Numbered from the stretch's first letter, positions 14,576 through 31,942 are shown. The stretch: 64,000 nucleotides of DNA from Acidobacteriota bacterium (GCA_965205505.1 CBDBHB010000009.1:352001-416000); one strand, 5' to 3'. Program-made: numbers and translations. Notes: generated from the sequence alone by a model not told the origin.

Positions 14576-15598
14576 ATGCCGAAGCCGCTGTCTGGTTTGA
14601 TTGTTGCAGGCATCGGGAGCTCACCTGTCGTTTGGATCATGGTCGCGGCGCTGCTCGGCGGCGCGATGCAGGCGTGTGGTCGGCCAGGGGGTGAGGTGGA
14701 GGAAGTTGCGGCCGGTGTGCTGGTACCGGAGATCAACGGCGAGTGGTGGCGGATCGCCGGCAATCCGGATCTGGGCGAGTTCACCAGCCCGGAGCAGGAG
14801 CCCACCGCCTTCGGCGTTTGGCAGGCGGCCGACGGAACTTGGCAGCTGTGGGGTTGCATCCGCAAGACCAATGTCGGCGGCAATACTCGGCTCTTCTTTC
14901 GCTGGGAAGGTGCTCGCATTACCGACATCGACTGGCAGCCTGTGGGCATCGCCATGATGGCCGACTCGAGCGTCGGCGAGACTCCCGGCGGCCTGCAGTC
15001 GCCGCACGCAACGCGGATCGGCGACGAATGGATTCTTGCCTACGGAGACTGGGAGCATATTTGCTTCGCGCGCAGCCCTGATGGCAAGGGGTTCACCCGC
15101 CAGATCGGCGACGACGGCATCGCCGGGGCGTTCGATGAGGGGCTGGGCAACAGCACGCGTGATCCGATGATCACGCAATTCGATGGCACCTACTATGTCT
15201 ACTACACGGCCAACCCGGGCGGAGTGGGATCGGTCTATGCACGCACCTCACCCGACCTGATGACCTGGAGCGAGTCGATCATCGTCTCGGCAGGTGGTAG
15301 CGCCGGTAGCGATTGGTTCGACGGCGAGGTGCCCGCCGTGCTGTGGATCGATGAAGCACAGGCGTACTACCTGTTCCGAACGCACTCGAGCCCGGCAGTC
15401 GGGGGGCGCATGCTGACCTCTGTTTACCGATCCACCGATCCGCTCGACTTCGGTGTTGGTGATGACCGCTACCTGGTGACGACGCTGGACAGCGAGGCCA
15501 CCTGGGTGGTCCGCGAGGCCGACAGCTACTATGTCGCCGCGGTGATGCCAGATCTGAGCGGCTATCGCGTCGCGCGGCTCGAGTGGGTGCGCCGCTAG
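14576..15598 (+). CDS. Five-bladed beta-propeller glycoside hydrolase-like lipoprotein (GH43/32/130 clan-like)
   Basis: RDP motif, SPDGK/SPDL Asp-box-like turns, MQAC lipobox. Confidence 0.6.
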   Translation: MPKPLSGLIVAGIGSSPVVWIMVAALLGGAMQACGRPGGEVEEVAAGVLVPEINGEWWRIAGNPDLGEFTSPEQEPTAFGVWQAADGTWQLWGCIRKTNVGGNTRLFFRWEGARITDIDWQPVGIAMMADSSVGETPGGLQSPHATRIGDEWILAYGDWEHICFARSPDGKGFTRQIGDDGIAGAFDEGLGNSTRDPMITQFDGTYYVYYTANPGGVGSVYARTSPDLMTWSESIIVSAGGSAGSDWFDGEVPAVLWIDEAQAYYLFRTHSSPAVGGRMLTSVYRSTDPLDFGVGDDRYLVTTLDSEATWVVREADSYYVAAVMPDLSGYRVARLEWVRR

Positions 15599-15873
15599 CA
15601 GGTCGTGGTGAAAGTGTGGTGGGTCTGGCGACAGGGTCTTGCGAAGTGGAGGCGAGGAGAGAGGAGGAGGCGATGGTTACCCCATCGTTGACGAGGAACG
15701 ACGCAGCAAACGCGCGCAACCCCCTGTCGCCCGAAGGGTTACGGCGATTTGGGGCCATTTGCGGCGTTGGCCTTCCTCGACGATGGCTAGGGTATCGCCA
15801 GTGTCAGGCCGCCTTGCATCTGGCCCCAACTCGCCGTAACCAGACCCACCACACTTTCACCACGGCCTGCTAG
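15595..15873. mobile_element. MITE-like element A (279 bp, CTAG ends)
   Basis: Terminal inverted repeats CTAGCAGGTCGTGGTGAAAGTGTGGTGGGTCTGG (15595-15628) and 15840-15873 match at 33/34; no credible CDS inside. Confidence 0.85.
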
Positions 15874-15878
15874 CAGGC

Positions 15879-17141
15879 ATGGCCCGCACGATCAGGAACA
15901 TCCGCTGGCGCGTCGCCGGGGTGGTGACGCTCGACACGGCCAACAACTACATGGACCGGATGACCCTGTCGGTGGTGATCATCCAGGTGCAGGTGGCGCT
16001 GTCGATCAGCGAGTCGCAGTATGCCACCCTCAATAGCCTGTTCCTGTTCGCCTACGCCATCATGTACGCCGTAGGCGGGCGGCTGGTCGACCGCCTCGGT
16101 ACCTACGCTGGCTTCCTGCTGATCAACGTGTTCTGGGCGCTGGCGGTGATCGCCCACGGCTTCTCCAACGGCTTCGTTGGCCTCGCCGTGTCGCGGTTCC
16201 TGCTCGGGGTCGGCGAGGGTGGGGGATTTCCTGCCTCGAGCAAGGCGGTGTCCGAGTGGTTCCCGGCGCGCGAGCGCTCCACTGCCTTCGGGCTGTTCAA
16301 CACCGGGTCGAGCATCGGCTCGGTGATCGCAGTGCCGCTGTTCAGCTTCATCATGATCGCCCTGGGCTGGCGCTGGGTGTTCTTTGTCGCTGGCGGGCTG
16401 GGGCTGCTCTGGTGTCTGTACTGGGCCTTCTTCTACCGGCTCCCGCACGAGCACCCACGCATCACCCCCGAGGAGCTGGAGCTCATCAGCGTGGCGCACC
16501 GTGAGGAGGCCGGGGGCGCCGCCGAAGAAGGCCCGCGCTGGCTGACGCTGTTCGCACACCGCGAGCTGCGCTGTCTGCTGGTGATCAAGTTCCTCACCGA
16601 TCCGGTCTGGTACTTCTACATCTTCTGGATTCCGAAGTACCTGTTCGATGTACGCGGCTTCAACATCGCCGAGGTCGGCTACTTCGCCTGGATTCCGTAT
16701 GCGGCGGCCGGTTGCGGCAGCTTGTTTGGTGGCTGGCTGTCGAGCCGGTTGCTGGGGCGAGGACAGAGCCTCGATCGCGCCCGCAAGATCACCCTCGGGC
16801 TCGGCGCCGCGCTCATGCCGGCTGCGGCGTTAGTAGTTTCGGTGCCGGCGGGCATCGCCATCCTGTTCATCAGCCTGGCGTTCATGGGGCATCAGATCTG
16901 GAACGTCGTCGTGCAGACGCTGCCGGCCGACCTCTACCCGAAGAGCCAGGTAGGCTCGGTGGCAGGCCTGATCGGCTCCGCCGGCGCTTTCGGCGGCATG
17001 GCCTTCGCCGCCCTGGTGGGCTGGATTCTGGCCTCGTCAGGCAGCTACGCGCCGATATTCGCCATCGTCAGCCTGCTGCACCCGGTGTCGTTCGGGCTCA
17101 TCCTCTGGGCCATCCCGAGGATCCGGCGGCTGGGCGTCTGA
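15879..17141 (+). CDS. MFS transporter, ACS/ExuT (hexuronate transporter)-like
   Basis: NYMDR, GRLVDRLG, EGGGFP, EWFPARER and DPVWYFY motifs. Confidence 0.88.
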   Translation: MARTIRNIRWRVAGVVTLDTANNYMDRMTLSVVIIQVQVALSISESQYATLNSLFLFAYAIMYAVGGRLVDRLGTYAGFLLINVFWALAVIAHGFSNGFVGLAVSRFLLGVGEGGGFPASSKAVSEWFPARERSTAFGLFNTGSSIGSVIAVPLFSFIMIALGWRWVFFVAGGLGLLWCLYWAFFYRLPHEHPRITPEELELISVAHREEAGGAAEEGPRWLTLFAHRELRCLLVIKFLTDPVWYFYIFWIPKYLFDVRGFNIAEVGYFAWIPYAAAGCGSLFGGWLSSRLLGRGQSLDRARKITLGLGAALMPAAALVVSVPAGIAILFISLAFMGHQIWNVVVQTLPADLYPKSQVGSVAGLIGSAGAFGGMAFAALVGWILASSGSYAPIFAIVSLLHPVSFGLILWAIPRIRRLGV

Positions 17142-17233
17142 GCGACGAGGCGTCGACGACGAAGGCGGAGGCGAACCTTGCTGGTCATTCTGTCCATCTC
17201 CTTACAATAGTAAGGATGATCTCCTTTGGACGG

Positions 17234-17250
17234 CCACCACGGCCTGCTAG
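17234..17250. repeat. Isolated right end of the element-A repeat family
   Basis: CCACCACGGCCTGCTAG matches the element A terminus; its CTA is the stop codon of the TonB receptor gene. Confidence 0.7.
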
Positions 17251-19304
17251 CGTCCGGTGTATCGAACCCCGACGCGGAGCGATCGCGAGGCACCCGGGAA
17301 CCCGATGAGCGTCTCGTAGCTGGCGTTGGCGAGGTTGTCGGCTCGCGCGACGACGGCGACCTGCGGCGCGAGCTTCCATGAGCCGCTCATCCCCAGCAGT
17401 GTGCGACCATCGACACGGTCTCGACCGGGGACGGGAAGCTGGCGGTCGAAGCTGCCGGCAACCTGCTGGACGTCGAGCGCCAGCAGCACTCGATCGTGTG
17501 CTCTCCAGGTAGCGCGAAGGCTCGACAGCCACTCGGGTCGCTGCAACAACGGCTCCGGGGAGCTCAGGTCTTCGACTTCCTGATATGTAGCGGTGACGGC
17601 GACGTTGAAGCGATCGTCGGCTCGCCATCCTAGGCTCATCTCCGCGCCGCGCGTCTCCACAGCATCGCGATTGATGTTCTGGAAGGTCTCAAAATCGAAG
17701 TCGACGAGATCGCTGAAGCGGTTGTAGAAGGCCGTCACCCCGAGGCTCACGCCGGCTTCGCGCCACTCGTGCTGCAGGCCGAGATCGGCGCCCCACGAGG
17801 TCTCGGGCCGGAGATCTGGGTTGCCGCCGAGCGCCCGCGGGCTGGCGAGCGCGAAGAAGCTGGGCAGCTTGAAGGCGCGCCCGACCGAGGCGCGAATCCG
17901 TGTGTCGTTACCGGTTCGGTAGGCGATACCGAACCGTGGGCTGAACTGCGCGTCGCTGCTGTCCGAGAAGTCCAACCGAGTGCCAACCTCGACAACGACG
18001 TCGGCGAGCTCCAACACGAGTTCGGCGAAAGGGCCGCCGACGGTCCGGGTGACGTTGTAATCACCGGCTATGTCGCCGCCCAGAAAGGGCGGCAGCGCCA
18101 GCACGCTGGCGACGTCGCCGCTCTCCCGCGTTACATCGAACCCAGCGCTGACGAAGCCGACATCGGAGGTCCGGAAGACAGCCGAGGCGCCGAGGCGGGC
18201 GCGGGTGAAGCGGGCGTGTTCGACCGCAGCCGGCACCAGCGGCGGCACGGCGGGGCTGATTCGGTCGAGCGTGTGGCGGTAAACGGAGGCGTTGAAGCGG
18301 AACTGCCGTCGATCGGTCGGACTCACGGTCAGATCGGCGCCCAGGCTGAGCTCGTCGTTGCGCGACGTGCGCAGCTCGCCAGACCCGAAGATCGGCCCGC
18401 CGGAGGCGACAGGGTAGTCATCGGCGTCCCAGCTAGCGACGCGACCGGCGAGCTGAAGATCGGTTGTCGCCGTGGGCCGCAAGCCGAGCCGCGCCTGGGC
18501 GTCGAACTGCTCGAAACGGTCGTCGCCGATGCGTCCCTGCTCGCGCTCGAATTGCAGCGCGACGGAATAGTCATGGCTCTGCTTCGAGTTGCTGATCCGC
18601 GTCGAGGCGCGAACCAACGATGCCGAACCGCCCTCGATCGCGGCACTGATCGACGGCCCCTCGCCGCCTGGCGCCGCTGCGCCGGACGTTGTGCCGCCCA
18701 CCGGCGCGCCCGCGCCCGCCGGCCCGGCCCGGGTGATGATGTTGATTGCACCTGCCAACCCGGTGGAGCCGAAGTGCGCCGACAGCGGTCCGGAAACCAC
18801 TTCGATGCGCTCGATCGTCTCTGTCGGCAAGCTGTTGAGGTTGAACGCTCCACCCTGCTGGTCGTTGGTGTCGTTGAGCGGGATGCCGTCGAGCAGCACG
18901 AGCGTGAAGTTGGGGTCGCCGCCACGTATCTGCGCTGCCGTCGAGCCGCCGCGCGAGCCGTCGGTGAGCAGCTGCACGCCGGGCACGAATCGCAGCAGCT
19001 CGGCGGCAGAGCGAGCCGCCAGCGCTTCAATGGTTGCGCGCTCGATCACGAACACCGCCGCGGTGGTCGAGGAGATCGGGCGATCGGTGACCGTGGCGGT
19101 GGAGTAGATGCGCCGCAGCTCAGGCGTCTGGGAGCTGGCCTCGTCGTTCTGTCGAGGTTGCTCGTCGGCTGGCTGCGCGCCGGCGTCCGCTGTTTGTTCA
19201 GGTCTCTCGGCTGTTCGCGCACCGGCATCCTCGACCCCGAGCAGCATGCCGAGCGCTGCGCTGAGCGCCAGCAGTCCGACGGCGGGCGCTCTAGCTGCCA
19301 ACAC
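17247..19304 (-). CDS. TonB-dependent receptor (BtuB-like plug and barrel)
   Basis: IRGG..NFTLVLLDG, IERIEVV.GP, NPDLRPE motifs; ends in VGVRY. Confidence 0.9.
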   Translation of the reverse strand: MLAARAPAVGLLALSAALGMLLGVEDAGARTAERPEQTADAGAQPADEQPRQNDEASSQTPELRRIYSTATVTDRPISSTTAAVFVIERATIEALAARSAAELLRFVPGVQLLTDGSRGGSTAAQIRGGDPNFTLVLLDGIPLNDTNDQQGGAFNLNSLPTETIERIEVVSGPLSAHFGSTGLAGAINIITRAGPAGAGAPVGGTTSGAAAPGGEGPSISAAIEGGSASLVRASTRISNSKQSHDYSVALQFEREQGRIGDDRFEQFDAQARLGLRPTATTDLQLAGRVASWDADDYPVASGGPIFGSGELRTSRNDELSLGADLTVSPTDRRQFRFNASVYRHTLDRISPAVPPLVPAAVEHARFTRARLGASAVFRTSDVGFVSAGFDVTRESGDVASVLALPPFLGGDIAGDYNVTRTVGGPFAELVLELADVVVEVGTRLDFSDSSDAQFSPRFGIAYRTGNDTRIRASVGRAFKLPSFFALASPRALGGNPDLRPETSWGADLGLQHEWREAGVSLGVTAFYNRFSDLVDFDFETFQNINRDAVETRGAEMSLGWRADDRFNVAVTATYQEVEDLSSPEPLLQRPEWLSSLRATWRAHDRVLLALDVQQVAGSFDRQLPVPGRDRVDGRTLLGMSGSWKLAPQVAVVARADNLANASYETLIGFPGASRSLRVGVRYTGR

Positions 19305-20214
19305 AGCCGTTCATCAGATCGCCCAACGAGTCGGGCACGAACCGCTCGATCAGCGCGTAAAGCGTCGGGTCGCGCTGGCGCAGCTGCTCGCGCGTGCCGG
19401 AGCGCGGCCCGCTGTCGCCGATCTGCACATCGACCCAGGGTCCTGGCAGCGACTCGTCGAGATCGAACCAGGCGTTGACGTTGTGGGTCAGGTACTCGTC
19501 GTCGCCGAATGCATCGGCCGGGGTGACGTTCTCTGGCTCGCCCACAGGCGCCGCGAACTCTCCCCGTGCCACCGCCGCCCGGTAGGCGACAAAGATCTCG
19601 TCCTCCACCCCCGGGTCGGTGGCCGCCCAACCGAGGTTTTGCATCGCATGAACGAACTCGTGCAGCAGGAAGTTGGCACGATACTCGTTGTTCCCCGGAT
19701 AGCAGATGCCACGCTCCGACACCAAGCTGGCGGGGTCGCCGGGCATCTGTCCGAGCCCCCACTCACCGTCGGCACCGGCGTCGAACTCCGGCAAATCAGA
19801 GGCGGTCTCGGAGATCGCCATGATCGAGATGCGCGGCGCCTGCTGCAACATCGCCTGGTGCACATCGGGCCGCTTGCTCAGCAGGTGCAGGATATTCCGT
19901 CGCGCCGCCACCAGCGCCGCGTCGGGAACCGCGTCGGAGCTGACGATCTCCACTCCCTCGGCGTCGAGATACTTGCGATAGAAGGGGGGAACGCCTTCAG
20001 GCGGCTCGGTCACCGTCTCGCCGTCAATCGATGCACCCGCGACGGGTGGCATTGCGGCCGCGTCCCTGCCCAGTGCGTCGTTGCCCGTCGCGTCGCTGCC
20101 CGGTGAGCCGGCGGCCCCCGCCGAGTCACCGCCCTCCGGGGTGCCGCACCCGACGACCCATACAGCTGCCCACAAGATCAGGAACAAGCTTGAACGCCAC
20201 TGCCGGTTGCCCAT
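19291..20214 (-). CDS. HExxH zinc-metalloprotease-like lipoprotein
   Basis: Lipobox VVGC; LLHEFVH...DEYL; TGATG overlap with the upstream M24 gene. Confidence 0.7.
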   Translation of the reverse strand: MGNRQWRSSLFLILWAAVWVVGCGTPEGGDSAGAAGSPGSDATGNDALGRDAAAMPPVAGASIDGETVTEPPEGVPPFYRKYLDAEGVEIVSSDAVPDAALVAARRNILHLLSKRPDVHQAMLQQAPRISIMAISETASDLPEFDAGADGEWGLGQMPGDPASLVSERGICYPGNNEYRANFLLHEFVHAMQNLGWAATDPGVEDEIFVAYRAAVARGEFAAPVGEPENVTPADAFGDDEYLTHNVNAWFDLDESLPGPWVDVQIGDSGPRSGTREQLRQRDPTLYALIERFVPDSLGDLMNGCVGS

Positions 20215-21578
20215 CAGCGCACGATCAAGATGCGTGGGTTGGGCGGATACAGCCACTCGACGCCATTCTCCGTGACGATGGCATTGTCCTCGAAGTTGAT
20301 CGCCAGCCGGGTACCGTTCGGGATCGCCGTGTGGACGACGAACTCGAGCGAGAAAATATTGTTCGGCTGGATCACCACATGCGCTCGATCCGGTCGGAAC
20401 GGCGCGAACGACGGTCCTACTGCGACCTCGCTGTTGCCCGTGTTGCCCACCGTGTGGCAGTCGATCGAGATGCCGGAACGTGGATCGTTCTCCAGTGCTG
20501 CGATGATAGCGCGATCCTCCTGGCCAACATCGGTAAACGGCGTATAGACGTAGTCGAGGTCTTCGAAAACCTGCGCCAGGTGGGCGAGCGTCTCGCTGGC
20601 AGTGCGGCCGACCTTGATGTTGTCCTTGATCACCTGGCGGGCGAAGTGGCCACGATCCCAAGCGTGCTGGATGAAGTCGGGCACCTCGGTCTCGCCCTCC
20701 GGCATGATGTAGGCGTGGCGCTTGAAGTCGGTGCCGAAGTTCAGGTATCGGACGCCCATGTCGTAGGAGAGGAAATCACCGCGCCGGATGACGTCGCTGC
20801 GACCGCCCCCAGCGTCGGCAGCGGCCGAGTACAGGATTCCGGGGGAGCTGATGCCGAACGACGAGCGCAGCCCCATCTCCAGCAGGCGCTCCTGCACCCA
20901 CCAGGCGACGTCCTCGCGGGTGGTGACACCCGGCGTGATCACCTCGTTGCTCAGTGCCCTCTCGTTCAGGCGGCGGGTGATCTCGCCGGCGGTCGAGAAG
21001 GCGGCGATCTCACGTTCGACCCGACGTACCCGGAAGTCGGTAATCAGCTGGTCGGACGACACCAGGCGCTCGGCGTAGGGTCCGAGCTCCTCGGTGATGC
21101 GCTCGTAGTCGGTGTGTGACAGGCCGTCGGCAACCCCCAGCCAAGAGGACATGTTGATGGCGATGCGCTGCGGGTCGCGCTCATCGACCATCTGTCGCAG
21201 GTCGCCCGGCGAACCGAAGATATCGTAGGTCTCCCGCATGCCGGGCCCTCTGCCGAAGCCGCCGAGCACGGCGCGCTCGATGCGATCACCGCCGCGATCG
21301 CTGAACACAAACGTGCCGAACTCGGCGCCCAGATCGAGCTCCAGCGGGTCGGGGTTGCCCAGGCGAATCACATGGATCCACATGTCGACGTTGTTGTCGC
21401 GCATGGCGCCGGGCAGGATCAGGTCAAACTTGTCTTGCCGGATCAGGTGCAACGTCTCGAAGCGTGCGCGGGCGTCGAGCATGCGCACGTCGTCCTGAGC
21501 GGCCCCGGCCGACAGCGCTGCCGGCAGGGTTGATGCCAAGAGCAACGGGATGAGTGCCAGCCGCATCGTTCGTCGCAT
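20214..21578 (-). CDS. M24-family peptidase, secreted
   Basis: AAGGAGG RBS; YDMG..TDFKR, HTVGN, LE and FEDN motifs. Confidence 0.85.
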   Translation of the reverse strand: MRRTMRLALIPLLLASTLPAALSAGAAQDDVRMLDARARFETLHLIRQDKFDLILPGAMRDNNVDMWIHVIRLGNPDPLELDLGAEFGTFVFSDRGGDRIERAVLGGFGRGPGMRETYDIFGSPGDLRQMVDERDPQRIAINMSSWLGVADGLSHTDYERITEELGPYAERLVSSDQLITDFRVRRVEREIAAFSTAGEITRRLNERALSNEVITPGVTTREDVAWWVQERLLEMGLRSSFGISSPGILYSAAADAGGGRSDVIRRGDFLSYDMGVRYLNFGTDFKRHAYIMPEGETEVPDFIQHAWDRGHFARQVIKDNIKVGRTASETLAHLAQVFEDLDYVYTPFTDVGQEDRAIIAALENDPRSGISIDCHTVGNTGNSEVAVGPSFAPFRPDRAHVVIQPNNIFSLEFVVHTAIPNGTRLAINFEDNAIVTENGVEWLYPPNPRILIVR

Positions 21579-21615
21579 CGCCGGACCGCGCCTCCTTCAG
21601 TGGTTCAGGTGGGAG

Positions 21616-21632
21616 TTGGATACAATATACGA
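21616..21632. promoter_or_regulatory. Putative GntR/FadR-type operator
   Basis: TTGGATACAATATACGA, an AT-rich patch between the divergent M24 and ABC genes. Confidence 0.5.
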
Positions 21633-21813
21633 ACTGCATTCGTGTTCCGGAGTAACCGGGCGCCCGTGGGGCGTGGGCTCGAGCCGACACGACTCGAGGT
21701 CGCACACATGGGAGGCGCTTGTTCGCATCATCTGCTCGAGTCGCATTTGCCTGAGCCGCATTTGTCCCGGCCAGCGGTGTAGTCGCAAGGCGCTAGCCGC
21801 ATCGCCGCGCCAG

Positions 21814-23442
21814 GTGTTGCTGAGCCTCGCGTCGTTTATCGCCGCGGCGCGCTTCGCTGTGGTCAACCTCGTCGCGGCCCGGTTTGCCGCGGCCAACGTC
21901 GTCGCTGGCCTCCTTGTCGCGGGTTTCCTCGTCCTGCCGCTCGCCTGCGCACCGGCCGGCGAGCGCACCCACCTGGTGCTGCTCACCGAGGGCATTCCGC
22001 CGACGCTCGATCCGGTGGCGGCGCTCGACAGCCGCGTCGATAACCCGATCATCAACCTCTACAGCGCGCTGGTGCAGTACACACCGGGCACCACCGAGCT
22101 ACATCCTGCCCTGGCCGAGTCGTACAAGGTGTCGGAGGACGGCCGCCGCTACGTGTTCACGCTGCGCGACGACGCCCGTTTTCACGACGGCACACCCGTC
22201 CTTGCCGAGGATGTCGAATACACCATCGAGCGCATGCTGGCGCTGAAGATCGGAGTCTGGGCCTACCTGACGCCGGTGATAGGTGCCGAGGTGATCGATC
22301 CAAGGCGCGTCGCCGTCGACCTGCAGGCGCCGTTCCCCGGCTTCTTGGGCGCTATGACCCGCCTTTATATCGCCAACGGCGATTTGATACGCGCCAACGA
22401 GTTCGAGGGCGACTTCGGCCAGCGCTGGCTGCAGACCCACGACGCCGGCGCCGGGCCCTACCGGTTGGTGTCGTTCCAGCCGGAGCAGCAGTTCACCGTC
22501 GAGCGTTTTCCCGAGTACCACGGTGGCTGGGGCGAGCGGCACATCGAGAGCGCCGTGTTCCGCGTTATCCGCGAGGAGGTAGCGCGGCGCATCGCGCTGG
22601 TCAATGGCGATGCCGACTGGATCTACCTGTCGAGCGCCGACACCCTCGAGGCGCTCGCCGATGAGCCCGGCATCGTGGTGAATCGCGATCCGACGCTCAA
22701 TCAGGCCTACATCGCCTTCAACACCCAGAGCGAGCACCTGGCCGATGCGCGCGTGCGCCGGGCGCTGGCGCTCAGCTATGACTACCAGGGACATTTCGAG
22801 CACCTCATGCGCGGCAATGCCGAATGGCCGTACGGAGTGCTGCCGGCTCGCGGTGAGTGCGCCAGCCCCGAGTCACCACGCCCGCGCACCGACCTCGAAG
22901 CGGCGAGGCGCCTGATCGCCGAGGCCGGCATCGAGCCGGGCCGGATCGAGCTCACCATGGCATTCGAGGGCACTACCGGTGAGACGCCGATCTTCGAGAT
23001 CCTGCGCTCCGGGGCTGCGAAGCTCGGCATCCGCGTGAACGCGGTCGACATCGAGTGGGACGCCAAGGTCGCCAACTACTCCCGGCTGGAGACCTCCACC
23101 GACATCGGCACGATCTGGCTATTCGCTCCGGGCCCCGAGGCGCATCACTTTCTCTACTCGCTGGCGCATTCCGGGCAGGCCGGCAACGGCGGCAACAACT
23201 TCGCCTGGTATCAGAATCCCGAGATGGACGCGCTGCTCGATGCGGCTGCCGAGGAGCTCGACGCGGAACGTCGATGCGCCCTCTATCGGCAGGTCGAGAC
23301 GCTGTGGCTCGCCGACATGCCTTTCGCCGTCAGCGTCACGATGGTCGGAATGTCGGCCCAGCGCGACGACCTGTATGGCTACTCCGTCAGCCTCGGACAC
23401 CCGTTGACCCAGAACCTCTACCCGATGTGGCAGGCCAGATGA
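21814..23442 (+). CDS. ABC transporter substrate-binding protein, family 5 (DppA/OppA-like)
   Basis: FTLRDDARFHDG and GAGPY motifs, lipobox PLAC; start uncertain (GTG 21814 chosen). Confidence 0.88.
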   Translation: MLLSLASFIAAARFAVVNLVAARFAAANVVAGLLVAGFLVLPLACAPAGERTHLVLLTEGIPPTLDPVAALDSRVDNPIINLYSALVQYTPGTTELHPALAESYKVSEDGRRYVFTLRDDARFHDGTPVLAEDVEYTIERMLALKIGVWAYLTPVIGAEVIDPRRVAVDLQAPFPGFLGAMTRLYIANGDLIRANEFEGDFGQRWLQTHDAGAGPYRLVSFQPEQQFTVERFPEYHGGWGERHIESAVFRVIREEVARRIALVNGDADWIYLSSADTLEALADEPGIVVNRDPTLNQAYIAFNTQSEHLADARVRRALALSYDYQGHFEHLMRGNAEWPYGVLPARGECASPESPRPRTDLEAARRLIAEAGIEPGRIELTMAFEGTTGETPIFEILRSGAAKLGIRVNAVDIEWDAKVANYSRLETSTDIGTIWLFAPGPEAHHFLYSLAHSGQAGNGGNNFAWYQNPEMDALLDAAAEELDAERRCALYRQVETLWLADMPFAVSVTMVGMSAQRDDLYGYSVSLGHPLTQNLYPMWQAR

Positions 23443-23493
23443 GGTCCCGCCGATGACACGCTGTCGTGAAGCGATGCCGATGAGACGCCGCCG

Positions 23494-24501
23494 ATGAGAC
23501 GGTACGTGGCCCGGCGCGTGCTACAGATGGTTCCGGTGCTCATCGGCGTTAGCCTAGTGGCCTTCTTCCTCACCAACCTGCTGCCCGGCGACCCGGCGCG
23601 TGCGGCGGCGGGTCGGCTCGCCACCCCGGAGCAGCTCGATGGGGTGCGTGAGCGCCTCGGTCTGGATCGGCCGCTGCCGGTGCAGTACGCGCTCTACATG
23701 GGGCGTTTGCTGCACGGCGATCTCGGTACGTCGCTTACCTCCAAGCAGGACGTCGGGCGCGAGCTGCTGATCTTCTTTCCGGCGACGCTTGAGCTGTTGC
23801 TGGCGACGATGGTGATCACGATCGGGGTCGGAATCCCGCTCGGTGTGCGGGCGGCGACCGCACGAGGAAGCTGGCTCGATCGCGGCTTCCTGGGCTTCTC
23901 CTACGTCGGTGTCGGCATGCCGGTGTTCTTTCTTGCCTTGTTGCTGCAGCTTGTCTTTGCGGGTTGGCTGCGGGTGCTACCGATCGCCGGCCGCCTGGGG
24001 CTCGAGACGGTGTCGCCGCCGACTGTCACCGGGATGTACACGATCGACGCGATTCTCGCCGGTCAGTGGAGCACTTTCCTCGATGCGATCCGCCACCTGG
24101 TGCTGCCGGCGGTAACGCTGGCGATTGCCGGAGTCTCGGAAGTGGGACGGATCACGCGCAGCTCGATGCTCGCGGCGCTGAGCCAGGACTACGTGCGAAC
24201 GGCGCGCGCCAAGGGCCTGTCAGAGCGCACCGTGTGGCTGCGGCACGCGCTGCCGAACGCCGTGTTGCCAACGACCACGGTGATCGGCTTACAGGTGGCG
24301 TTCTTGCTCGGCGGCACCGTGCTGATCGAGAACCTGTTCTCCTGGGGTGGGCTCGGAACGTACGCCTGGACCGGGATCTTCCGCCTCGATATTCCGGTGA
24401 TCATGGGGATAACGCTCATCTCCACCACCGTTTACTTGTTCGTGAACCTCGGGGTCGATCTGGTGTACGCCAAGCTCGATCCACGGATCGACTATGAGTA
24501 G
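23494..24501 (+). CDS. dppB: Peptide ABC permease
   Basis: LPGDPA, DYVRTARAKGL and HALPNA (EAA loop). Confidence 0.9.
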   Translation: MRRYVARRVLQMVPVLIGVSLVAFFLTNLLPGDPARAAAGRLATPEQLDGVRERLGLDRPLPVQYALYMGRLLHGDLGTSLTSKQDVGRELLIFFPATLELLLATMVITIGVGIPLGVRAATARGSWLDRGFLGFSYVGVGMPVFFLALLLQLVFAGWLRVLPIAGRLGLETVSPPTVTGMYTIDAILAGQWSTFLDAIRHLVLPAVTLAIAGVSEVGRITRSSMLAALSQDYVRTARAKGLSERTVWLRHALPNAVLPTTTVIGLQVAFLLGGTVLIENLFSWGGLGTYAWTGIFRLDIPVIMGITLISTTVYLFVNLGVDLVYAKLDPRIDYE

Positions 24502-25426
24502 CGGGTCGATAATGTGGCGGATGATGCCGCCCGCAGCAACGCGGTTGCGAGCGATGCTGCCGCGCGATCGGCGCCTCATCGTTGGAGGCGCGATCGTGGC
24601 GCTGTTCCTGACGATGGCAGCGGTTCCGGGCCTGTTCACCGGCCAGGATCCGGCTGGATTGGAGCTCGAGCGGCGGCTGGCGCCCCCATCTGCGCAGCAC
24701 TGGCTGGGCACCGACGGGGTCGGCATCGACGTCTACTCGCGCATCGTCTACGGCGCCCGCACCACACTGGCCACCGTGCTGGTGGTGCTTGCGATCGCCA
24801 TCCTCGTGGGCGTGAGCGTGGGCTCGGTGGCTGGGTATATCGGCGGCTGGCTGGATGGCCTGTTGATGCGTACCACCGACGTGTTTCTCGCCTTCCCGCC
24901 GCTGATCCTGGCGCTGGCCACTAACGCCGTTCTCGGTAGAGGGCTGCGCCAGACGATGTTCGCGGTGGCATTTCTCTGGTGGCCTGCCTACGCGCGTCTC
25001 GTGCGTGGGCAGATTCTCTCGGTGCGCAAGCAGGAGTTCGTCGAATCGGCGCGCGTCATCGGCGCCAGCCGGTTCCGCATTGTCACCCGTCACGTGCTTC
25101 CCAACGTCATCGACCCGGTCATCGTACGCGCTTCCCTCGACGCCGGGTTCGTGGCGTTGACCGCGGCGTCGCTGAGCTATCTCGGGCTGGGCGCGCAACC
25201 GCCCACACCGGAGTGGGGACGCATGGTAGCCGAGGGTCAGAAGTTCCTACTCGACCAGTGGTGGATGGCGAGCTTCCCCGGGCTGGCGCTTTTCGCGTTG
25301 GTAATCGGATTCAACCTCATCGGCGAGGGCCTCGGCGACCGACTTCAGAGCGGGGCTGGGGCTGGGACTGGGGCACCGGCTAGGGGATTCAGCGGCGCCT
25401 CGACCGGCGCCACAAAGGAGACATGA
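24494..25426 (+). CDS. dppC: Peptide ABC permease
   Basis: HWLGTD, ESARVIGA and LSYLGLGAQPPTPEWG motifs. Confidence 0.9.
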   Translation: MSSGSIMWRMMPPAATRLRAMLPRDRRLIVGGAIVALFLTMAAVPGLFTGQDPAGLELERRLAPPSAQHWLGTDGVGIDVYSRIVYGARTTLATVLVVLAIAILVGVSVGSVAGYIGGWLDGLLMRTTDVFLAFPPLILALATNAVLGRGLRQTMFAVAFLWWPAYARLVRGQILSVRKQEFVESARVIGASRFRIVTRHVLPNVIDPVIVRASLDAGFVALTAASLSYLGLGAQPPTPEWGRMVAEGQKFLLDQWWMASFPGLALFALVIGFNLIGEGLGDRLQSGAGAGTGAPARGFSGASTGATKET

Positions 25427-26169
25427 TGGAGGTCATTCGCATCTGCGCCATTATCCCGGTCCGTAACGGCTTGCAGGCCTGGGGCGAAGTGCATCGTGAG
25501 CTGATGGCACCGCTGACGCACCCGGGCGTCGAGTTCGAGCTGCGGGACCTGCCGGATGCCCCGATCGAATCGATCGGCTGCACCTACGACGCCGAGTTGC
25601 TGGCCATGCTGCACATCAACGCGGCGCGGCTGGCGCAGGATGAGGGCTTCCACGCCGTCGCCATGGGCTGTCTGGACGAGCCCGGGGTGCAGGGTGCCAA
25701 GGAGGCCCTCGACATCCCGGTGATCGGCGAGTCCGAGGCAGCGATGCACTTCGCTTCGATGGTCGGCCGGCGGTTCTCATTCCTGATGCCGGGCGAGATC
25801 GACGGCAACCAGTGCGGCGCCTACGGGTCGCGCTGCATCGAGGACCTGGCGCGTATGTACGGCTTCGCCGACAAGCTCGCCTCGGTGCGCTCGGTGTTGG
25901 GTGGCTCCCTCGACTTCGCCGGCCGCGACGCGGGCCTACCCGAGAGCATGATCGAGCAGGGGAGGCTGGCGATGCAGGAAGACGGCGCCGACGCGGTGAT
26001 TGGCTACGGCAGCCTCGATGTCATCGGCCGGCTGCAGCGCGAGCTGCCGATCCCGGTCATTGATCCGATTCAGGCCTCGGCGATGATGGCGGAGAGTCTG
26101 GTGCGCCTGCGTATCGCGCAAAGCAAGCGCGCCTTCCCGACGCCGGACAGCCTGAGCGGCGAGAGCTAG
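25423..26169 (+). CDS. Hydantoin/allantoin racemase-fold protein (Asp/Glu racemase superfamily)
   Basis: GCLDEPG, IPVIG.SEAA, EDGADAVI and PVIDP motifs; the second catalytic Cys position reads GYG. Confidence 0.8.
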   Translation: MMEVIRICAIIPVRNGLQAWGEVHRELMAPLTHPGVEFELRDLPDAPIESIGCTYDAELLAMLHINAARLAQDEGFHAVAMGCLDEPGVQGAKEALDIPVIGESEAAMHFASMVGRRFSFLMPGEIDGNQCGAYGSRCIEDLARMYGFADKLASVRSVLGGSLDFAGRDAGLPESMIEQGRLAMQEDGADAVIGYGSLDVIGRLQRELPIPVIDPIQASAMMAESLVRLRIAQSKRAFPTPDSLSGES

Positions 26170-26265
26170 CGCGAATACCGAGCCACACGCGACAACTGAC
26201 ACCGACCATACTGAAAGAATCACGATGCGCCCGCGCGCGGGCCTATCAGCAGGGGAGTGAGACCG

Positions 26266-27267
26266 ATGAAGTCGAGAGAGTTCTGGGACGAGTTTGCCGA
26301 GGTCACCATCAAACGGCTGGTCGAGCCCGGTGCCGGCGATCCGCTGTTGGTGCTCGCCGACACCCGCAGCGAGCTCAACCTGGCGCACGCGCTGATGGCG
26401 GCCGGGGTACGCGCCGGCGCCGATACCCAGCTGATCGTCAAGCAGCTCGCCAAGCCCGACGAGGCTGCCTATCCGGGTCCGATTCTCTGTGAGGCTTTCA
26501 AGGCCGCGAAGTACATCGTGTCGATCATCGATGACGGCATCGATGCCTCGCAGGCGATGCTCGACGCCAAGGCCGGCGGCACCAGCATCCTCTACACGGA
26601 GGTCAGCAGCGTCGAGGACTACGTCGTCCGTGCCCTCTTGCACGTCGACATCGACAAGATGATCCGCATCGGCACCCGCGTCTGCGAGCTCTGGGAGGCC
26701 ACCGACATCTGCCGCGTGACCTCGCCGCAGGGCACCGATGTGAGCTTCCAGCTCAAGCCGCGCAAGGCCGATCTCGGCACCGGCAAGCTCGAGCGCCCCG
26801 GCATGGACGACTTCTTTCCGGGCATGCAGACCAACATCGCGCCGGTCGAGGAGAGCATAAACGGGGTCATCGTCGTCGATGCTTCCGACAGCGTTCAGGG
26901 CGTCGTGCACACCCCGTACAGCATGACCATGGAGAACGGCGTGATCGCCAAGGTCGAGGGCGGCTCCGAGGCCGACAACATGCGCGAGTGGCTGGCAGGC
27001 TGCAACGATCCGACCATCTACAAGCTCTGCCACTTCAGCCTCGGCCTCAATCCCCAGGCGGGCATCTCCGGACGCATGATCGAGGACGAGCGCAAGCTGG
27101 CGGCGGTCGACTTCGGCTTCGGTTACCAGAACCCCGACTTCGGTGGCACCGTTGGCCTGAGCGATTTCCACATGGACATCATGATGGCCACGCCGACCGT
27201 CATTCTCGACGGCAAGGAGATGAGTGGCGGCGGTGCCTTCAACCCCGAGATGGGCTTCGAGGACTAG
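26266..27267 (+). CDS. M29 aminopeptidase-fold / NicX-like metalloenzyme
   Basis: VTSPQGTDVSF, INGVIVVD, CHFSLGLNP and FHMD motifs. Confidence 0.75.
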   Translation: MKSREFWDEFAEVTIKRLVEPGAGDPLLVLADTRSELNLAHALMAAGVRAGADTQLIVKQLAKPDEAAYPGPILCEAFKAAKYIVSIIDDGIDASQAMLDAKAGGTSILYTEVSSVEDYVVRALLHVDIDKMIRIGTRVCELWEATDICRVTSPQGTDVSFQLKPRKADLGTGKLERPGMDDFFPGMQTNIAPVEESINGVIVVDASDSVQGVVHTPYSMTMENGVIAKVEGGSEADNMREWLAGCNDPTIYKLCHFSLGLNPQAGISGRMIEDERKLAAVDFGFGYQNPDFGGTVGLSDFHMDIMMATPTVILDGKEMSGGGAFNPEMGFED

Positions 27268-27449
27268 TGCTCCTGATATCATAAGTACGGTGACGTTTGT
27301 GGCGCGCGCGAGCGGGGCGAATTGTAGGAGCGGCGACGAGGGCGATGCTGGGTGTATCGTCGAGGCGCCGCGACGCCCAAGGTGGCCGGTCCCGCGGCCA
27401 CCCGGAGGGCAGGAGCAAACGTCACCGTACTTATGATCAGGAGCACTAG
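27264..27449. mobile_element. MITE-like element B (186 bp)
   Basis: Inverted repeats 27264-27299 and 27416-27449 are identical apart from a 2-bp indel; CTAG at both ends plus an extra CTAG. Confidence 0.85.
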
Positions 27450-27452
27450 CTA

Positions 27453-28325
27453 GTGGCGCAATCGTTGCTCGAGGTGCGCGAGCTGCGCGTAACGTTTGAT
27501 ACGGGCGCCGGCGTGGTACGCGCGGTCGACGGGATCTCGTTCAGTGTCGATGCCGGGGAGACCCTCGGCATCGTCGGCGAGTCCGGTTCGGGCAAGAGCG
27601 TCGCCGCAATGTCGCTCGTCGGCCTGGTGCCGGCACCGCCGGCGTGGGTGCAGGCGGAGCGGGTATCGCTGGGAGGCGTCGACCTGCTGGGGCTCGGCGC
27701 CGCGGGGCTCTCGAGCGTGCGCGGCAAGCGCGTCGGCTTCATATTCCAGGATCCGTTGTCGGCCCTCAACCCGTTGCTGACGATAGGGCGTCAGGTCGGC
27801 GAGGTCATCGAGCGTCACCTGGGCGGGGGTGGCGCGGAGACCCGACGCCAGGTGGTGCAATGGTTGGGGCGCGTCGGGATCCCGCAGCCGGAAGAGCTGG
27901 CCGGCGCCTACCCGCACCAACTGTCGGGCGGCATGCGGCAGCGAGTGATGATCGCGATGGCGCTGGCTGGCGAACCTGAGCTGCTGATTGCCGACGAGCC
28001 GACAACCGCTCTCGACGTGACCGTTCAGGCTCAGATCGTCGATCTCATGCGGGAGCTGCGCGACGATCTCGGCATGGCGTTGATCTGGATCAGCCACGAT
28101 CTGGCGGTGGTTGCGGGCCTCGCCGACCGGGTGGCGGTGATGCGGGCCGGGAAGATCGTCGAAACCGCCCCGGTTGACGATCTGTACGCCGCCCCGGAGC
28201 ACCCGTACACCTGCGAGCTCATGGCACTGGCGCGGCGCGACGCCGTGGGCGCGGATGGAATCGTTGGCGGCGTCCCCGGCGCCGGGGGTCTCGGCAGCGG
28301 CGTCGGGTCGGAGCCACCCGCGTGA
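27453..28325 (+). CDS. dppD: Peptide ABC ATP-binding protein
   Basis: [19 protein letters not shown] and HPYT motifs; lacks the Cys-rich C-terminal extension. Confidence 0.9.
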
Positions 28326-28335
28326 GCGCCCGATC

Positions 28336-29340
28336 ATGAATGCCGCCGCGCCGCTGCTCGACATCTCCGACCTGCGGGTTCATTTTCCACGCCGGGCCGG
28401 TACCACCTGGCGGCAAGACCGCAGCGTGGTGCGTGCCGTCGACGGCGTTTCGCTGACGGTAGCTCGCGGCGAGACCTTGGCGCTGGTGGGCGAGAGCGGT
28501 TGCGGCAAGACCACGCTGGGGCGTGCCATCCTGCGACTCGTGCCGGCGACCTCGGGGAGCGTGCGCTTCGATGGTCAGGAACTAGGCAGCCTCAACAGAG
28601 CGCAGCTGACGAAGCTGCGCCCGCGCATGCAGTTGGTGTTCCAGGATGCCGGCGCGGCGCTCAACCCGCGATGGAGAATCGAGCGCCTGGTCGCCGAGCC
28701 GTTGGAGATCCACCGTCAGCTCGCCGGCGCCATGCTGCGCCGAAAGGTCGACGCGCTGCTCGAGACCGTCGGGCTCGACCCCGCGCTCGGTGTACGGCTG
28801 CCGCGCGAGCTCTCCGGCGGCCAACGACAGCGCGTCGGCATCGCGCGGGCGCTGGCGCTCGAACCCGAGGTGCTGGTGTGCGACGAGCCCACATCGGCGC
28901 TCGACTTGTCGATCCAGGCGCAGATCGTCGCTCTGTTGAAGGATCTGCAGCAGCGGCTCGGACTGTCCTACCTGCTGATCACCCACGATCTCGGCGTTGT
29001 ACGGCAGATCAGCGACCGTGTTGCCGTGATGTACCTCGGCAAGGTGGTCGAATGTGCGCCGCGCGATGAGTTGTTCAACAGCCCGCGTCATCCTTACACG
29101 CAGGCGCTGCTAGCCGCCGTTCCGATCGCCGATCCGGCGCGGGCACGGCAGGCGCGGGCAGCGGCCGTTGGCGGTGAAATGCCGAGCCCGTCTGACCCTC
29201 CGGCGGGCTGCAACTTCTGTACGCGATGCTCGGTCAAGAGCCAAGCCATGCTCGAGCGTGGCGTGGACTGCGACACGCTCGAGCCGCAGCTAATCGAACC
29301 GACCGCGGGCCACTCCGTGGCCTGCCACCTGCACACCTGA
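28336..29340 (+). CDS. dppF: Peptide ABC ATP-binding protein
   Basis: [19 protein letters not shown] and GC.F..RC...VACH motifs. Confidence 0.9.
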
Positions 29341-29378
29341 GCCGGACCGCTTGCCCGGCCGAGTCACAGAGGCACCGA

Positions 29379-29999
29379 ATGATCGAAGTTCGCAGCTCCT
29401 ATCGGGTCAAGATGCCCGACGCCGAGGGCCCTGTCGAAGAGCTGGCGCAACAGTGCCGCGAAACCGTGTGGCCGATTCTGGGCTGGGATGGCCGTGTTCA
29501 GCAGATGCTGCATGGCCACGCGCAACAAAGCCTGTTCGTTTGGTCGTTCCAGTGGCCGAGCCTCGCTGCATGGGAAGCGGCGATGGTGGCGGCGGAGCAA
29601 TGCGACGAATACTGCGCCTGGCGAGCCGAGATCGCCCCGCGCTTGCTCTACGGCGGCGCTCAAGAGGTGTTCACCGTGCTCGATCCGTCACCGCCGGCCG
29701 ACAACACGCCGCGCAAGATCGAGGTGCGGAGCTCATACATCGCGCGAATCGACCGACTCGATCGGGCGCGCCAGCACATGGCCCGCGCCCAGGACATCGC
29801 CGGCTGGTCGGGTCAGAACCAGCAGCTGCTCTGCGGCAACGATGCCCCGGGGAAGTTCGTCTGGTCGTCGACCTGGGACAGCCTGGCAGTGTGGGAACAG
29901 GCGATGGGCGCTGGCGACGACGAGCTCGAGGGCTGGTTCGGTGGCTGGGTGGCGCTGGTCGACTTCGGCGGCACGCGCGAGGTGTTTCGTAATCTCTGA
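29379..29999 (+). CDS. Hypothetical protein with two tandem NIPSNAP/ferredoxin-like repeats
   Basis: IEVRSSY...GW.G..QQ.L.G...FVWS..W.SLA.WE.AM...GG..EVF occurs twice. Confidence 0.7.
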   Translation: MIEVRSSYRVKMPDAEGPVEELAQQCRETVWPILGWDGRVQQMLHGHAQQSLFVWSFQWPSLAAWEAAMVAAEQCDEYCAWRAEIAPRLLYGGAQEVFTVLDPSPPADNTPRKIEVRSSYIARIDRLDRARQHMARAQDIAGWSGQNQQLLCGNDAPGKFVWSSTWDSLAVWEQAMGAGDDELEGWFGGWVALVDFGGTREVFRNL

Positions 30000-30052
30000 G
30001 CCGTAGGAAATCGAACCCCCGACCTGCGGATGTCACATCCGATGCTCCAGCG
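29997..30052 (-). pseudogene. Degenerate tRNA-like 3' half
   Basis: Minus strand GGAGCA-TCGGA-TGTGACA-TCCGC-AGGTC-GGGGG-TTCGATT-TCCTA-CGGCTC has the anticodon arm, variable loop and T-loop layout; no 5' half and a non-canonical loop. Confidence 0.35.
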
Positions 30053-30145
30053 GCCGTCGAGGGTCCAGCGTAGCTGTGAAGAAAGGAGCGGTCGCCCCGG
30101 TTCACGAGGGGGTCCTGGGAGGACGGTGGCCCTTCATAGTCCTCT

Positions 30146-30250
30146 TCATCTTTGATGGATGTCGTTGCCCTTGCCACAGGTGAGACACTCGTACTCCGGT
30201 GACTCTCCTTCGAACACGACGCGCCCCGCTAGTTGAAGAGCTTGCCAACT
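30146..30250 (-). pseudogene. 3' remnant of a small CxxC protein cut at the IS/MITE junction
   Basis: WQALQLAGRVVFEGESPEYECLTCG...*; no continuation beyond the MITE. Confidence 0.3.
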
Positions 30251-30349
30251 AGATGAGATGAGAAGGCCAACCTCCTGAACGCAGTAGCCTGACGGCTCTG
30301 CAAACGTTTCTTCAAACGTAACGGGCTCGAAGCCCAAGGAGGTTGGCCG

Positions 30350-31392
30350 ATGAGGAGTGTAACGATTGGACTGGACGTAAGCGACCGGTACAGCCGTATG
30401 TGCGTGCTCGACAGTAAGGGCAGGGTGATGGAGGAAGGGCGGGTGAGGACGAGCCCGGAGGGGCTGGCGAGGCGGTTCGGGTGCGAGGAGCCCGCTCGAG
30501 TAGTGCTGGAGGTTGGAACGCACTCGCCGTGGATGAGTGAGCAGTTGAAGCAACTGGGTCATGAGGTGCTGGTGGCTAACCCGAGGCGGCTGAAGCTGAT
30601 CTATGGCGAGCACGGACCGACCGGTTGGATGCCGAGCACCTGGCACGAGTGGGCAGAATGGACCCAAAGCTGCTTAAGACGGTGCAGCATCGAGGCAGAC
30701 AAGCGCGAGCGGATCTAGCCGTGATTCGGAGCCGAGATGCTCTGGTAAAGAGCCGCACGCAGTTGGTGAGCCATGTGCGTGGTGCGGTCAAGTCGGCCGG
30801 TTGTCGTATTCCCAGGTGCTCGACGCCGGCGTTCGCGCGCACCGCGCCAGAGCACATACCGGAGCGGCTCAAGGGAGCGCTCGAGCCGGTGCTTGAAACG
30901 ATCGCCATGCTGACGGGCAACATCCAGCAATACGAGCGTCAGATCGTGCAGCTGTGCCAGGGGCGATACCCGGAGACACAGCAGCTCCAGCAAGTGGCCG
31001 GGGGCGGAGCTCTGACCGCACTGGCGTATGTGCTGACGCTCGAGGAGCCGGAACGGTTCAATACCTCCAGAGCCGTGGGCCCGTACCTGGGACTGAGACC
31101 GAAGAAACGGCAGTCGGGGGACAAGGACCCTGCGCTACGAATAACCAAGGCGGGCGACAAAATGCTCCGACGCCTGTTGGTGGGCTCGGCGCATTACATC
31201 CTGGGCCCCTTCGGGCCCGATACTGAGCTCAGACGCTGGGGGCTCAAGCTGGCCGGACGCGGTGGTCCTCATGGCAACAAAAAGGCAGCAGTTGCTGTCG
31301 CCCGTAAGCTCGCCGTTGTGCTGCACCGACTGTGGCTGAGTGGAGACGAGTACGAACCGTTGCGCGCACCTGTAGAGGTTTCAGCAGCATGA
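30350..31392 (+). pseudogene. IS110-family DEDD transposase/recombinase, frameshifted near 30614-30616
   Basis: IGLD and VLE in frame 30350; TD.LD, YLGLRP..RQSG and AVARKL in frame 30625; the K of the usual KTD motif is lost at the shift. Confidence 0.85.
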
Positions 31393-31640
31393 ACTAACCC
31401 GCAACCAGGAGGTCGGTAGGGCGACGCGACCCAACGGTTATCGATCTGACCGCCCGGTCCGGGCGACTGCGAAGGTCACTACGAGCTTCGAGCTCGGCAG
31501 CTAGATTGCAGCGCCTCGAATCGGGACGGACCCCAGAATGCACCGGACGACCTGAATCCTCGTCCACCAGAGTGCGAATAGGAGCATGGCGTGCAGATCG
31601 ATTCTTCGCTGGGCACCACATTGCCCTTGACCGAACTAGG
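31393..31640 (+). ncRNA. Predicted seekRNA/bridge RNA of the IS1111-type element
   Basis: Two guide-bearing loops at 31462-31515 and 31559-31584 whose single-stranded parts match the target and the donor junction (see findings). RNA ends are approximate. Confidence 0.75.
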
Positions 31641-31654
31641 CCTTCTCTTAGAAG

Positions 31655-31928
31655 TGGCCTGAGTCAGAAATCCGTTGCATATTGTGGCGAGCGCGACCGA
31701 GGCGGATCCCAGGAGGCGCGACGACGGCGATGCAATAAGCATCGTCGAGGAGTGCCGACGCCGGAGGCGTCCGGTCCCGCCGCCACCCGGAAGGCTGGGC
31801 CGATATGGGGGCAATCTCGGCGTTGCGATTCGTCGACGAGGGGCGTGGCATCGCCATCCTCATCGCGCCTTGAGCTTGCCCCCATCTCGGCCCAGCAATA
31901 TGCAACGGATTTCTGACTCAGGACACTA
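31655..31928. mobile_element. MITE-like element C (IS630-like TA ends), left tip interrupted by the IS
   Basis: Right TIR 31896-31928 reverse-complements to TAGTGTCCTGAGTCAGAAATCCGTTGCATATTG; the left copy is TAG (30250-30252) plus 31655-31684, matching at 32/33. Confidence 0.85.
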
Positions 31929-31942
31929 AGAGGAGGTTCGAA

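Follow-up and report, generated by a model that had tools for sequence, protein, structure and literature searches.

A covarying hairpin module carried by short mobile elements of Acidobacteriota and other bacteria

Why should three short mobile elements whose ends look unrelated carry one and the same internal hairpin module? [quoted passage not shown] It regarded the module as a structured motif under selection, folding as RNA or as single-stranded DNA and spread as cargo by more than one transposase family. We find that the elements are mobile, that the fold has been kept by compensatory change across phyla and that one of its strands is favoured. The module is very probably the core of a superfamily of IS630-type MITEs, endowed with a real fold; it is not a stand-alone RNA gene.

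The shared module and its fold

The identification of A, B and C as MITEs is borne out by their inverted ends, small size and many copies, and by empty sites in congeneric genomes. Element A (15595-15873; 279 bp including both flanking CTAG) has 46 full-length copies in G000, and its left terminal inverted repeat (15597-15628, plus strand) has its partner at 15840-15871. Element B (27264-27449; 186 bp) overlies the upstream gene's TAG stop codon, and element C (31653-31928; 276 bp) has IS630-type ends, with TA-AG beyond the right one. The inverted ends span 48 nt in A, 22 nt in B and 32 nt in C and are 85%, 100% and 97% complementary, respectively; CTAG is the site of all three elements.

The sharing of a module also stands, as a covariance model (R1) built from 20 module variants of G000 yields five copies in the window. 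Element A contains one copy at 15627-15736 on the plus strand (variant f1, divergent and with an enlarged GA-rich loop; 69.2 bits) and another at 15732-15841 on the minus strand (f2, class III; 100.3 bits), B a single copy at 27299-27407 on the plus strand (f4, class I; 78.8 bits), and C one at 31684-31792 on the plus strand (f9, class I; 95.0 bits) and one at 31788-31897 on the minus strand (f7, class II; 95.6 bits). A sixth match is merely a 21-bit echo of the right-hand copy of A on the opposite strand (21.4 bits on the plus strand). The hairpins quoted in the initial annotation read as given, from GGGGCCA at 15751 to TGGCCCC ending at 15827 in A and from GGGGGCA at 31807 to TGCCCCC ending at 31883 in C. 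Its description of two opposed copies joined by a linker in A and C and of one copy in B likewise agrees with the sequence: the linkers are CCCGAAGGG in A and CCCGGAAGG in C, and CCCGGAGGG trails the single module of B. The two modules within A are different variants, about 57% identical. The hairpins fill the interior of the elements, and in C candidate open reading frames on both strands traverse them.

Over the roughly 105 nt of the module, RNAalifold proposes 26 pairs for the 20 variants of G000, 18 of them with compensatory changes. The claim of a covarying fold holds in a larger alignment of 82 matches from 60 of the 63 loci searched, all outside G000 and with the unpublished genome G049 omitted. 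There, 90.4% of cells are paired, compared with 69.8% in shuffles and 24-45% when partners are slid, and 24 of the 26 pairs have changed on both sides. On none of five measures did any of 500 shuffles reach the observed value, and the covariation score is 0.485 against 0.144 in shuffles and 0.04-0.10 with slid partners; the signal is strong, although the alignment was fitted to R1, its copies are kin and the statistics ignore the tree. Some variants share as little as about 50-60% of their sequence, yet about 90% of the pairing persists, with up to four pair types at a position. Whole elements fold as well: as RNA, A has a z-score of -13.1 and C of -12.7 (200 shuffles each), and both adopt a Y, with a stem formed by the ends and two local hairpins, each module being self-complementary.

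On its favoured strand, the module runs through the outer stems, AAGG, a variable stem of 5 bp, GACGA, GGCGAUG, a loop, CAUCGUC, GAGGA, the other side of the variable stem, (A/G)ACGCC and again the outer stems. The most conserved letters are AAGG, GA.G, CGATG, CATCG, A.GA and AC. The 5' GACGA can oppose the 3' GAGGA as two tandem G.A pairs flanking a C-G pair, and this C-G pair itself covaries (CG in 66 copies, GC in 12). A conserved G.U pair is present in 58 of the 82 copies. The loop ranges from about 3 to 9 nt with the stem kept, a variability that fits a hairpin and not the site of a dimeric protein on double-stranded DNA. Two low-GC loci of other phyla, L066 and L108, have AT-rich outer stems and yet retain GGCGATGC...GCATCGTCGAGGA. 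No Rfam 15 family matches the window at gathering scores; at E values up to 10, the search returned only long-hairpin microRNA precursors and chance matches far under the thresholds, and no ribozyme.

The two strands are not equivalent. Under RNA parameters, the strand reading GGCGAUG...CAUCGUCGAGGA is the more stable in 63 of 75 cross-genome copies and the other strand in 11, with a mean difference of 5.7 kcal/mol, and cells of G.U type outnumber those of A.C type by 74 to 47 even apart from the conserved G.U pair. DNA parameters (G.T ignored) favour the same strand by 16 to 3 among 19 variants of G000. Covariation and strand preference together bear out the proposal of a structured motif that folds as a single strand and is under selection.

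The module is widespread. Of 121 genomes sampled from the phylum, 35 have an R1 match, as do 29 of 91 genera, counting G000 and the unpublished G049 (33 of 119 genomes without those two), and an exact-pattern scan of species genomes gave an R1 match (E value of 1e-5 or better) in 33 of 80, among the loci listed. Among the matches listed, the closest named carriers are labelled Acidobacteriota, and the labels are mostly Acidobacteriota and Thermoanaerobaculia, with Bradymonadales, Polyangia, Myxococcales, 'delta proteobacterium' and Planctomycetota as further ones; a Chlamydiota label among them is doubtful, the G+C content being 70% over the match of about 110 nt. Genomes with Myxococcota-type, Planctomycetota and Bradymonadales labels have the module in several copies. 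Outside the phylum, four genomes contain 27, 17, 39 and 6 copies, and in the phylum to which the 'delta proteobacterium' genome belongs, matches occur in 10 of the 81 genomes sampled, at up to 41 copies each. The distant copies inspected have their own, different inverted ends and lie next to CTAG or TTAG. In viral contigs, none of 32 pattern matches passed the covariance model.

Element architecture, target site and transposase

Across G000, nhmmer detects 368 module matches, well beyond the number due to chance, and 304 of them are near full length. Sorted by position, the matches make up 218 groups, namely 121 pairs in convergent ('+-') orientation, 84 singles, a lone divergent ('-+') pair and 12 more complex arrangements. 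The prevalence of convergent pairs would be consistent with the suggestion in the initial annotation that the motif is produced whichever strand is transcribed. The gap within convergent pairs is 6-7 nt in 77 of the 121 and 19 nt in another 19. Near-full-length copies form 22 clusters at 88% identity, in about four classes, and inverted ends were detected in 103 of the 110 elements with two modules and in 30 of the 52 with one. End type and variant family go together: A ends enclose f1 and f2 (45), B ends f4 and f5 (23), and C ends either f3 and f6 (17) or f7 and f8 (8). As the B-end family combines f4 with f5, the B of the window is a one-module derivative of a two-module family. The C of the window combines f9 with f7, and a few hybrids in G000 bear two different ends.

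These combinations bear directly on the puzzle of the ends. B-type elements and the C of the window each combine a class I module with a class II module, in identical order, and over 135 nt the left half of B matches that of C at 74% identity, so B-type elements and C are homologues rather than unrelated carriers. Class III modules accompany A ends (as f2) and also C ends (as f3), which indicates some shuffling between end families. The ends themselves tell the same story for B and C, as the end of B resembles IS630 ends of the genome G039 and both elements terminate in variants of a single IS630-type end. This kinship is a direct reading of the first 18-20 letters, end-to-end alignments of the ends being noisy (the shuffled maximum of 22/32 overlaps the observed values). 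The notion of unrelated ends consequently fails for B and C; for A, no partner was found. Nor is spread by more than one transposase family supported, given the IS630-type ends and common architecture of B and C and the CTAG site of all three elements; the transposase of A was not found, and a second family may or may not be involved.

Insertion can be read directly from congeneric genomes. The site of A is empty in G118 (gccgCTAGcaggcatgg / gccgCTAGcaggc), where the flanks are contiguous around a single CTAG and G000 has CTAG-A-CTAG; A thus arrived once the two species had parted, and it landed in the gap that separates a TAG stop codon from an ATG eight bases further downstream. It lies between two tightly packed genes, and its left CTAG includes the TAG stop of the upstream gene. 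B is missing at the orthologous stop codon in both G118 and G069. Among 143 elements of G000 with both ends recognised, CTAG abuts 115 left ends and 123 right ends, and in 57 the boundary TAG terminates a called gene. Gaps between convergent genes are richer in elements than divergent ones (35 of 554 versus 13 of 533), as judged by a crude gene caller that called 3,713 genes covering 73% of the genome. CTAG itself is depleted in G000, with 5,853 sites compared with about 19,700 expected from base composition (GATC has 50,474). TAG serves as the stop codon in 1,447 of the 3,713 called genes, despite the scarcity of CTAG. Around A, the eight-base gap from the TAG stop to the ATG of the next gene can be followed at 15590-15600 and 15870-15882 in the window and at 1500-1512 of locus L172, and the bases past the target of A (CAGGCATGG) look like the start of its own end (CAGGCCGTGG).

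IS630 is listed with a 2-bp duplication in CTAG in Table 1 of a published compilation (PMC2577343). Duplications of TA (2 bp) and of CTAG (4 bp) are indistinguishable when an element begins with G and ends with C; the right end of C, ...CAC-TA-AG, fits a TA duplication. An IS630-family element of 1185 bp in G000 (C9:263590-264774), whose gene fills the element and matches DDE_3 at an E value of 1e-22, shares 17 of the first 18 letters with the ends of C and has no module inside. DDE_3 has seven matches in G000 overall and reaches 1e-22 in two types of insertion sequence. No module was found within autonomous elements among the large repeats of G000, the only neighbour being a 30-copy IS110-family element that adjoins modules because it inserts beside C-type MITEs.

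The A-type end occurs 234 times in G000 (up to 5 mismatches in 30 nt), and candidates for an autonomous A were followed up and rejected: two seemingly large pairs of A ends merely flank cellular genes, 181 unpaired A ends belong to truncated elements, mini-palindromes or hybrids, and a DDE_Tnp_1 element with eight copies in G118 lacks both an A-like end and a flanking CTAG. Numerous mini-palindromes of 32-36 nt in G000 (for example at C8:220833, C8:412142 and C9:2993774) contain nothing but the outer part of the A end and its mirror copy, set between two CTAG; they may be footprints of excision or the products of extreme deletion. In G039, IS630 copies and A-like MITEs stand head to tail, sharing one CTAG (loci L190 and L197). 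Each insertion recreates the target, so that arrays and nested elements can accumulate.

What the fold may do

Recent changes appear to place selection elsewhere than on resident copies. Among ten families of G000, stem changes comprise 52 mismatches of G.U type, 57 of A.C type and 94 transversions versus 9 double changes that keep the pair, and singletons affect 0.76% of paired versus 1.03% of unpaired site-copies (odds ratio 0.74, p 0.026). These one-sided changes and singleton rates imply that inserted copies decay almost neutrally and without strand preference. Pairing and strand asymmetry are maintained between families. Taken together, these sequence patterns suggest that selection bears on lineages that go on producing copies, or on insertions at the time they occur, and not on each resident copy. 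Per-copy selection within family A was considered and set aside, as variation is even over ends and modules and the family is too young to inform.

The account that we prefer, with a probability of roughly 0.45 for the whole, is that an old superfamily of IS630-type MITEs has this module as its conserved, self-folding core and that the module has a cis-acting role at the RNA level. Members of this widespread superfamily would insert at TA within CTAG and be moved in trans by IS630-type transposases; their terminal repeats would track the available transposase and change quickly, enclosing one or two self-folding modules of about 105 nt. The fold would act in cis for the element, in single-stranded form. 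We tentatively suggest that it may work as an insulator, a compact RNA rod in read-through transcripts that would allow an insertion at a stop codon or within an operon to be tolerated. An RNA-level role is favoured by the strand signal of G.U type, by insertion at sites that must be transcribed and by the convergent pair, which amounts to one favoured copy per transcript. A comparable role in tolerance has been proposed for ERIC and Correia elements.

Several observations weigh against this account. Under DNA parameters, the strand difference is gone from the cross-genome set (36 versus 37), and G.T and G.A mismatches are tolerated in DNA as well, so that the strand signal and the split between parameter sets establish a favoured strand and do not tell RNA from single-stranded DNA. 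A strand-specific RNA role exercised site by site would predict a bias of orientation towards genes, and single-module elements display no preference: 20 versus 20 downstream of genes, 10 versus 14 upstream, and 7 sense versus 11 antisense in co-directional gaps, with the same crude caller. Orientation relative to replication, by contrast, is weakly biased, the favoured strand of single modules lying on the lagging-strand sequence in 33 cases versus 15 (p 0.013) and full A elements being oriented 28 versus 12 (p 0.017), in exploratory tests of which several were run side by side and with the direction of replication inferred from GC skew on contigs C7, C8 and C9. No autonomous partner of A was found in G000, nor among the inspected IS630 and IS5-type elements of G118 and G039. 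Of the 35 module-bearing genomes, 17 have no DDE_3 match at an E value of 1e-5, among them the near-complete, many-copy genomes G069, G002, G055 and G112; over all 121 genomes, DDE_3 is present in 44, with 18 having both, 17 the module only, 26 DDE_3 only and 60 neither, in a sample in which kin are not independent. Finally, the invariant letters (AAGG, GA.G, CGATG/CATCG, A.GA and AC) are left unexplained by an insulator, for which a plain stable hairpin would suffice, and point to a specific partner.

The main rival moves the function to DNA, where the module would extrude as a hairpin or cruciform that juxtaposes the two terminal repeats of a very short element before the transposase, or would serve in single-stranded form at the replication fork. 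It would account for selection that appears on propagating lineages and not on inserted copies, for the absence of a gene-orientation bias and for the replication bias just described, and the fold of the whole element, with the ends paired at the base of two hairpins, suits it. We nonetheless find it somewhat unlikely: no module is present in the autonomous IS630 whose ends resemble those of C, which means that the transposase does not need one; a cruciform requires both strands to fold and only one is optimised; conserved mismatches and bulges generally hinder extrusion; and the replication bias is modest, one of several tests, and in a direction suggesting that a stable hairpin is avoided on the lagging-strand template. 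Very improbable is an element of REP/REPIN or IS200/IS605 type, which a Y1 (HUH) transposase would move in single-stranded form. The inverted hairpin doublets resemble REPINs and one strand is favoured, but Y1_Tnp (PF01797) has no match in the 96%-complete G000, under a search whose control was positive in 6 of 14 named genomes, and the long terminal inverted repeats, the CTAG sites and the C ends held in common with an IS630 leave this proposal close to refuted.

The module might instead be a functional RNA with a specific partner that the MITEs carry, either a self-cleaving ribozyme of small size or a riboregulator that binds a protein, for example as a sponge or a site of processing; the host or the element would then depend on precisely these conserved letters. 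Invariant or near-invariant letters are set in internal loops and two stems amid freely covarying stems, the same letters recur in the low-GC loci L066 and L108 of other phyla, the favoured strand is favoured as RNA, and a convergent pair supplies one favoured-strand copy to a transcript coming from either side. We consider this reading improbable all the same, because neither a ribozyme nor any other Rfam family matched at E values up to 10, inserted copies decay nearly neutrally and lie without bias relative to genes, and no candidate partner was identified. Moreover, the genomes with one or few copies that we inspected contain no single-copy, syntenic 'native' locus, and most of ten inspected loci have inverted ends around the module. 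A last alternative invokes no function whatever, the module being conserved solely through common descent and horizontal transfer while its arms are kept complementary mechanically, for instance by hairpin-templated repair. Copies within a genome are indeed young and numerous, MITEs nest and recombine into hybrids with an A end and a C end, and recent mutations carry no sign of selection for pairing. Such a history is decidedly hard to reconcile with pairing of 90% at 50-60% identity and with up to four pair types per position; homogenisation of the arms would also erase the G.U pair, the AA bulges and the GACGA/GAGGA loop, all of which persist across phyla, and the 203 one-sided changes versus 9 pair-restoring doubles argue against any fast mechanical correction.

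Inspection by eye disposed of some narrower ideas: an attC-like site and a k-turn were dropped, as were a mini-ORF from the ATG in the conserved stem, whose frame shifts with loop length, and an outward promoter, whose candidate -10 lies within the non-conserved loop. No IHF-like site was recognised in the module by the same inspection.

Known elements and the surroundings of the module

REPINs, and REP sequences with their RAYT, also occur in hundreds of intergenic copies with hairpin pairs in inverted arrangement. G000 resembles them in both respects and differs in having no Y1 transposase, long terminal inverted repeats, a CTAG target and one family with IS630 ends. RUP of Streptococcus pneumoniae and other IS630-derived MITEs are non-autonomous, target TA and borrow their ends from an IS630-family element. 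We know of no RUP-type MITE whose interior is shared between end families or phyla; in the elements described here, the interior is the best-conserved part.

In ERIC, compensatory substitutions were reportedly noted by Wilson and Sharp in 2006. By description, ERIC (MITEEc1) of enterobacteria is likewise short, gene-less and an imperfect hairpin, co-transcribed with its neighbours and with a core conserved across genera; the present module differs in recurring in several end families and phyla, usually as two divergent copies in convergent orientation, and in its invariant loop letters. Correia elements of Neisseria are also many-copy hairpin MITEs near genes and transcribed with them, but they are restricted to Neisseria and have conserved ends and an IHF site, whereas here the conserved part is an internal branched fold. 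One published account (PMC10969869) presents ERIC and Correia as hairpin MITEs with conserved, transcribed cores, mentions that ERIC at the 3' end of Yersinia genes alters transcript levels through an RNase E site, and attributes the transcript effects of Correia elements (CREE/NEMIS) to RNase III cleavage and an internal site for the IHF protein. A MITE census (PMC11602168) uses the label MITEEc1_IS630 for ERIC, and a term search of that text met no discussion of conserved cores.

We found no description of the module in Rfam or in the literature searched: among the matches listed, no paper relevant to MITEs and IS630 together with covariation or structured RNA in bacteria appeared, and none contained a 12-letter core of the module as DNA or as RNA. 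What sets the module apart is its occurrence in several end families and phyla, with a ribozyme-like alternation of invariant loops and covarying stems. The conserved cores of ERIC and Correia elements are each confined to a single family within a single bacterial group; the present module is kept while the ends exchange or diverge, in at least three end families of G000 and in genomes labelled as several phyla. Its persistence across changing ends implies that something beyond the transposase constrains the interior of the element. An RNA-level role, if true, would turn the hundreds of copies per genome at stop codons and in operons into a widespread post-transcriptional layer of structure across soil bacteria, and a DNA-level role would reveal a rule for the mobilisation of very short elements. 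Were the module instead a true functional RNA domain spread by MITEs across phyla, be it a ribozyme of small size or a platform on which a conserved protein or the ribosome docks, which we think as improbable as the partner-bound RNA above, it would be a bacterial counterpart of RNA-bearing short interspersed elements and a new class of mobile structured RNA, in which convergent copies ensure one active copy per transcript in either direction. The presence of a partner transposase and its MITE together in G000 makes both the RNA-level and the DNA-level role testable.

Contigs of four public sequencing runs covering 15000-32500 break at repeats and provide no usable joint across A, B or C. In the genome G021, which has a single R1 match (locus L049), a diverged module lies directly beside what appears by eye to be the 3' end of a tmRNA or tRNA, on the opposite strand. 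Within the window, an IS110-family insertion sequence separate from the module occupies approximately 30249-31652 on the plus strand, at the outer end of the left repeat of C. Its match to DEDD_Tnp_IS110 (E value of 5.8e-6, 26.6 bits) is below the Pfam cut-off of 29 bits and that to Transposase_20 is above the cut-off; the copy lacks 4 nt after 30614 relative to a multi-copy consensus of the four public runs, which splits the transposase frame. The IS110-family element is about 1.42 kb long and has about 30 copies in G000, its right end abutting AGTGGCCT and its left flank ending in CTAG. In 22 of 29 full-length copies, counted by eye, the terminal repeat of a C-type MITE continues from the right flank, from which it follows that this element targets the outer end of C-type MITEs.

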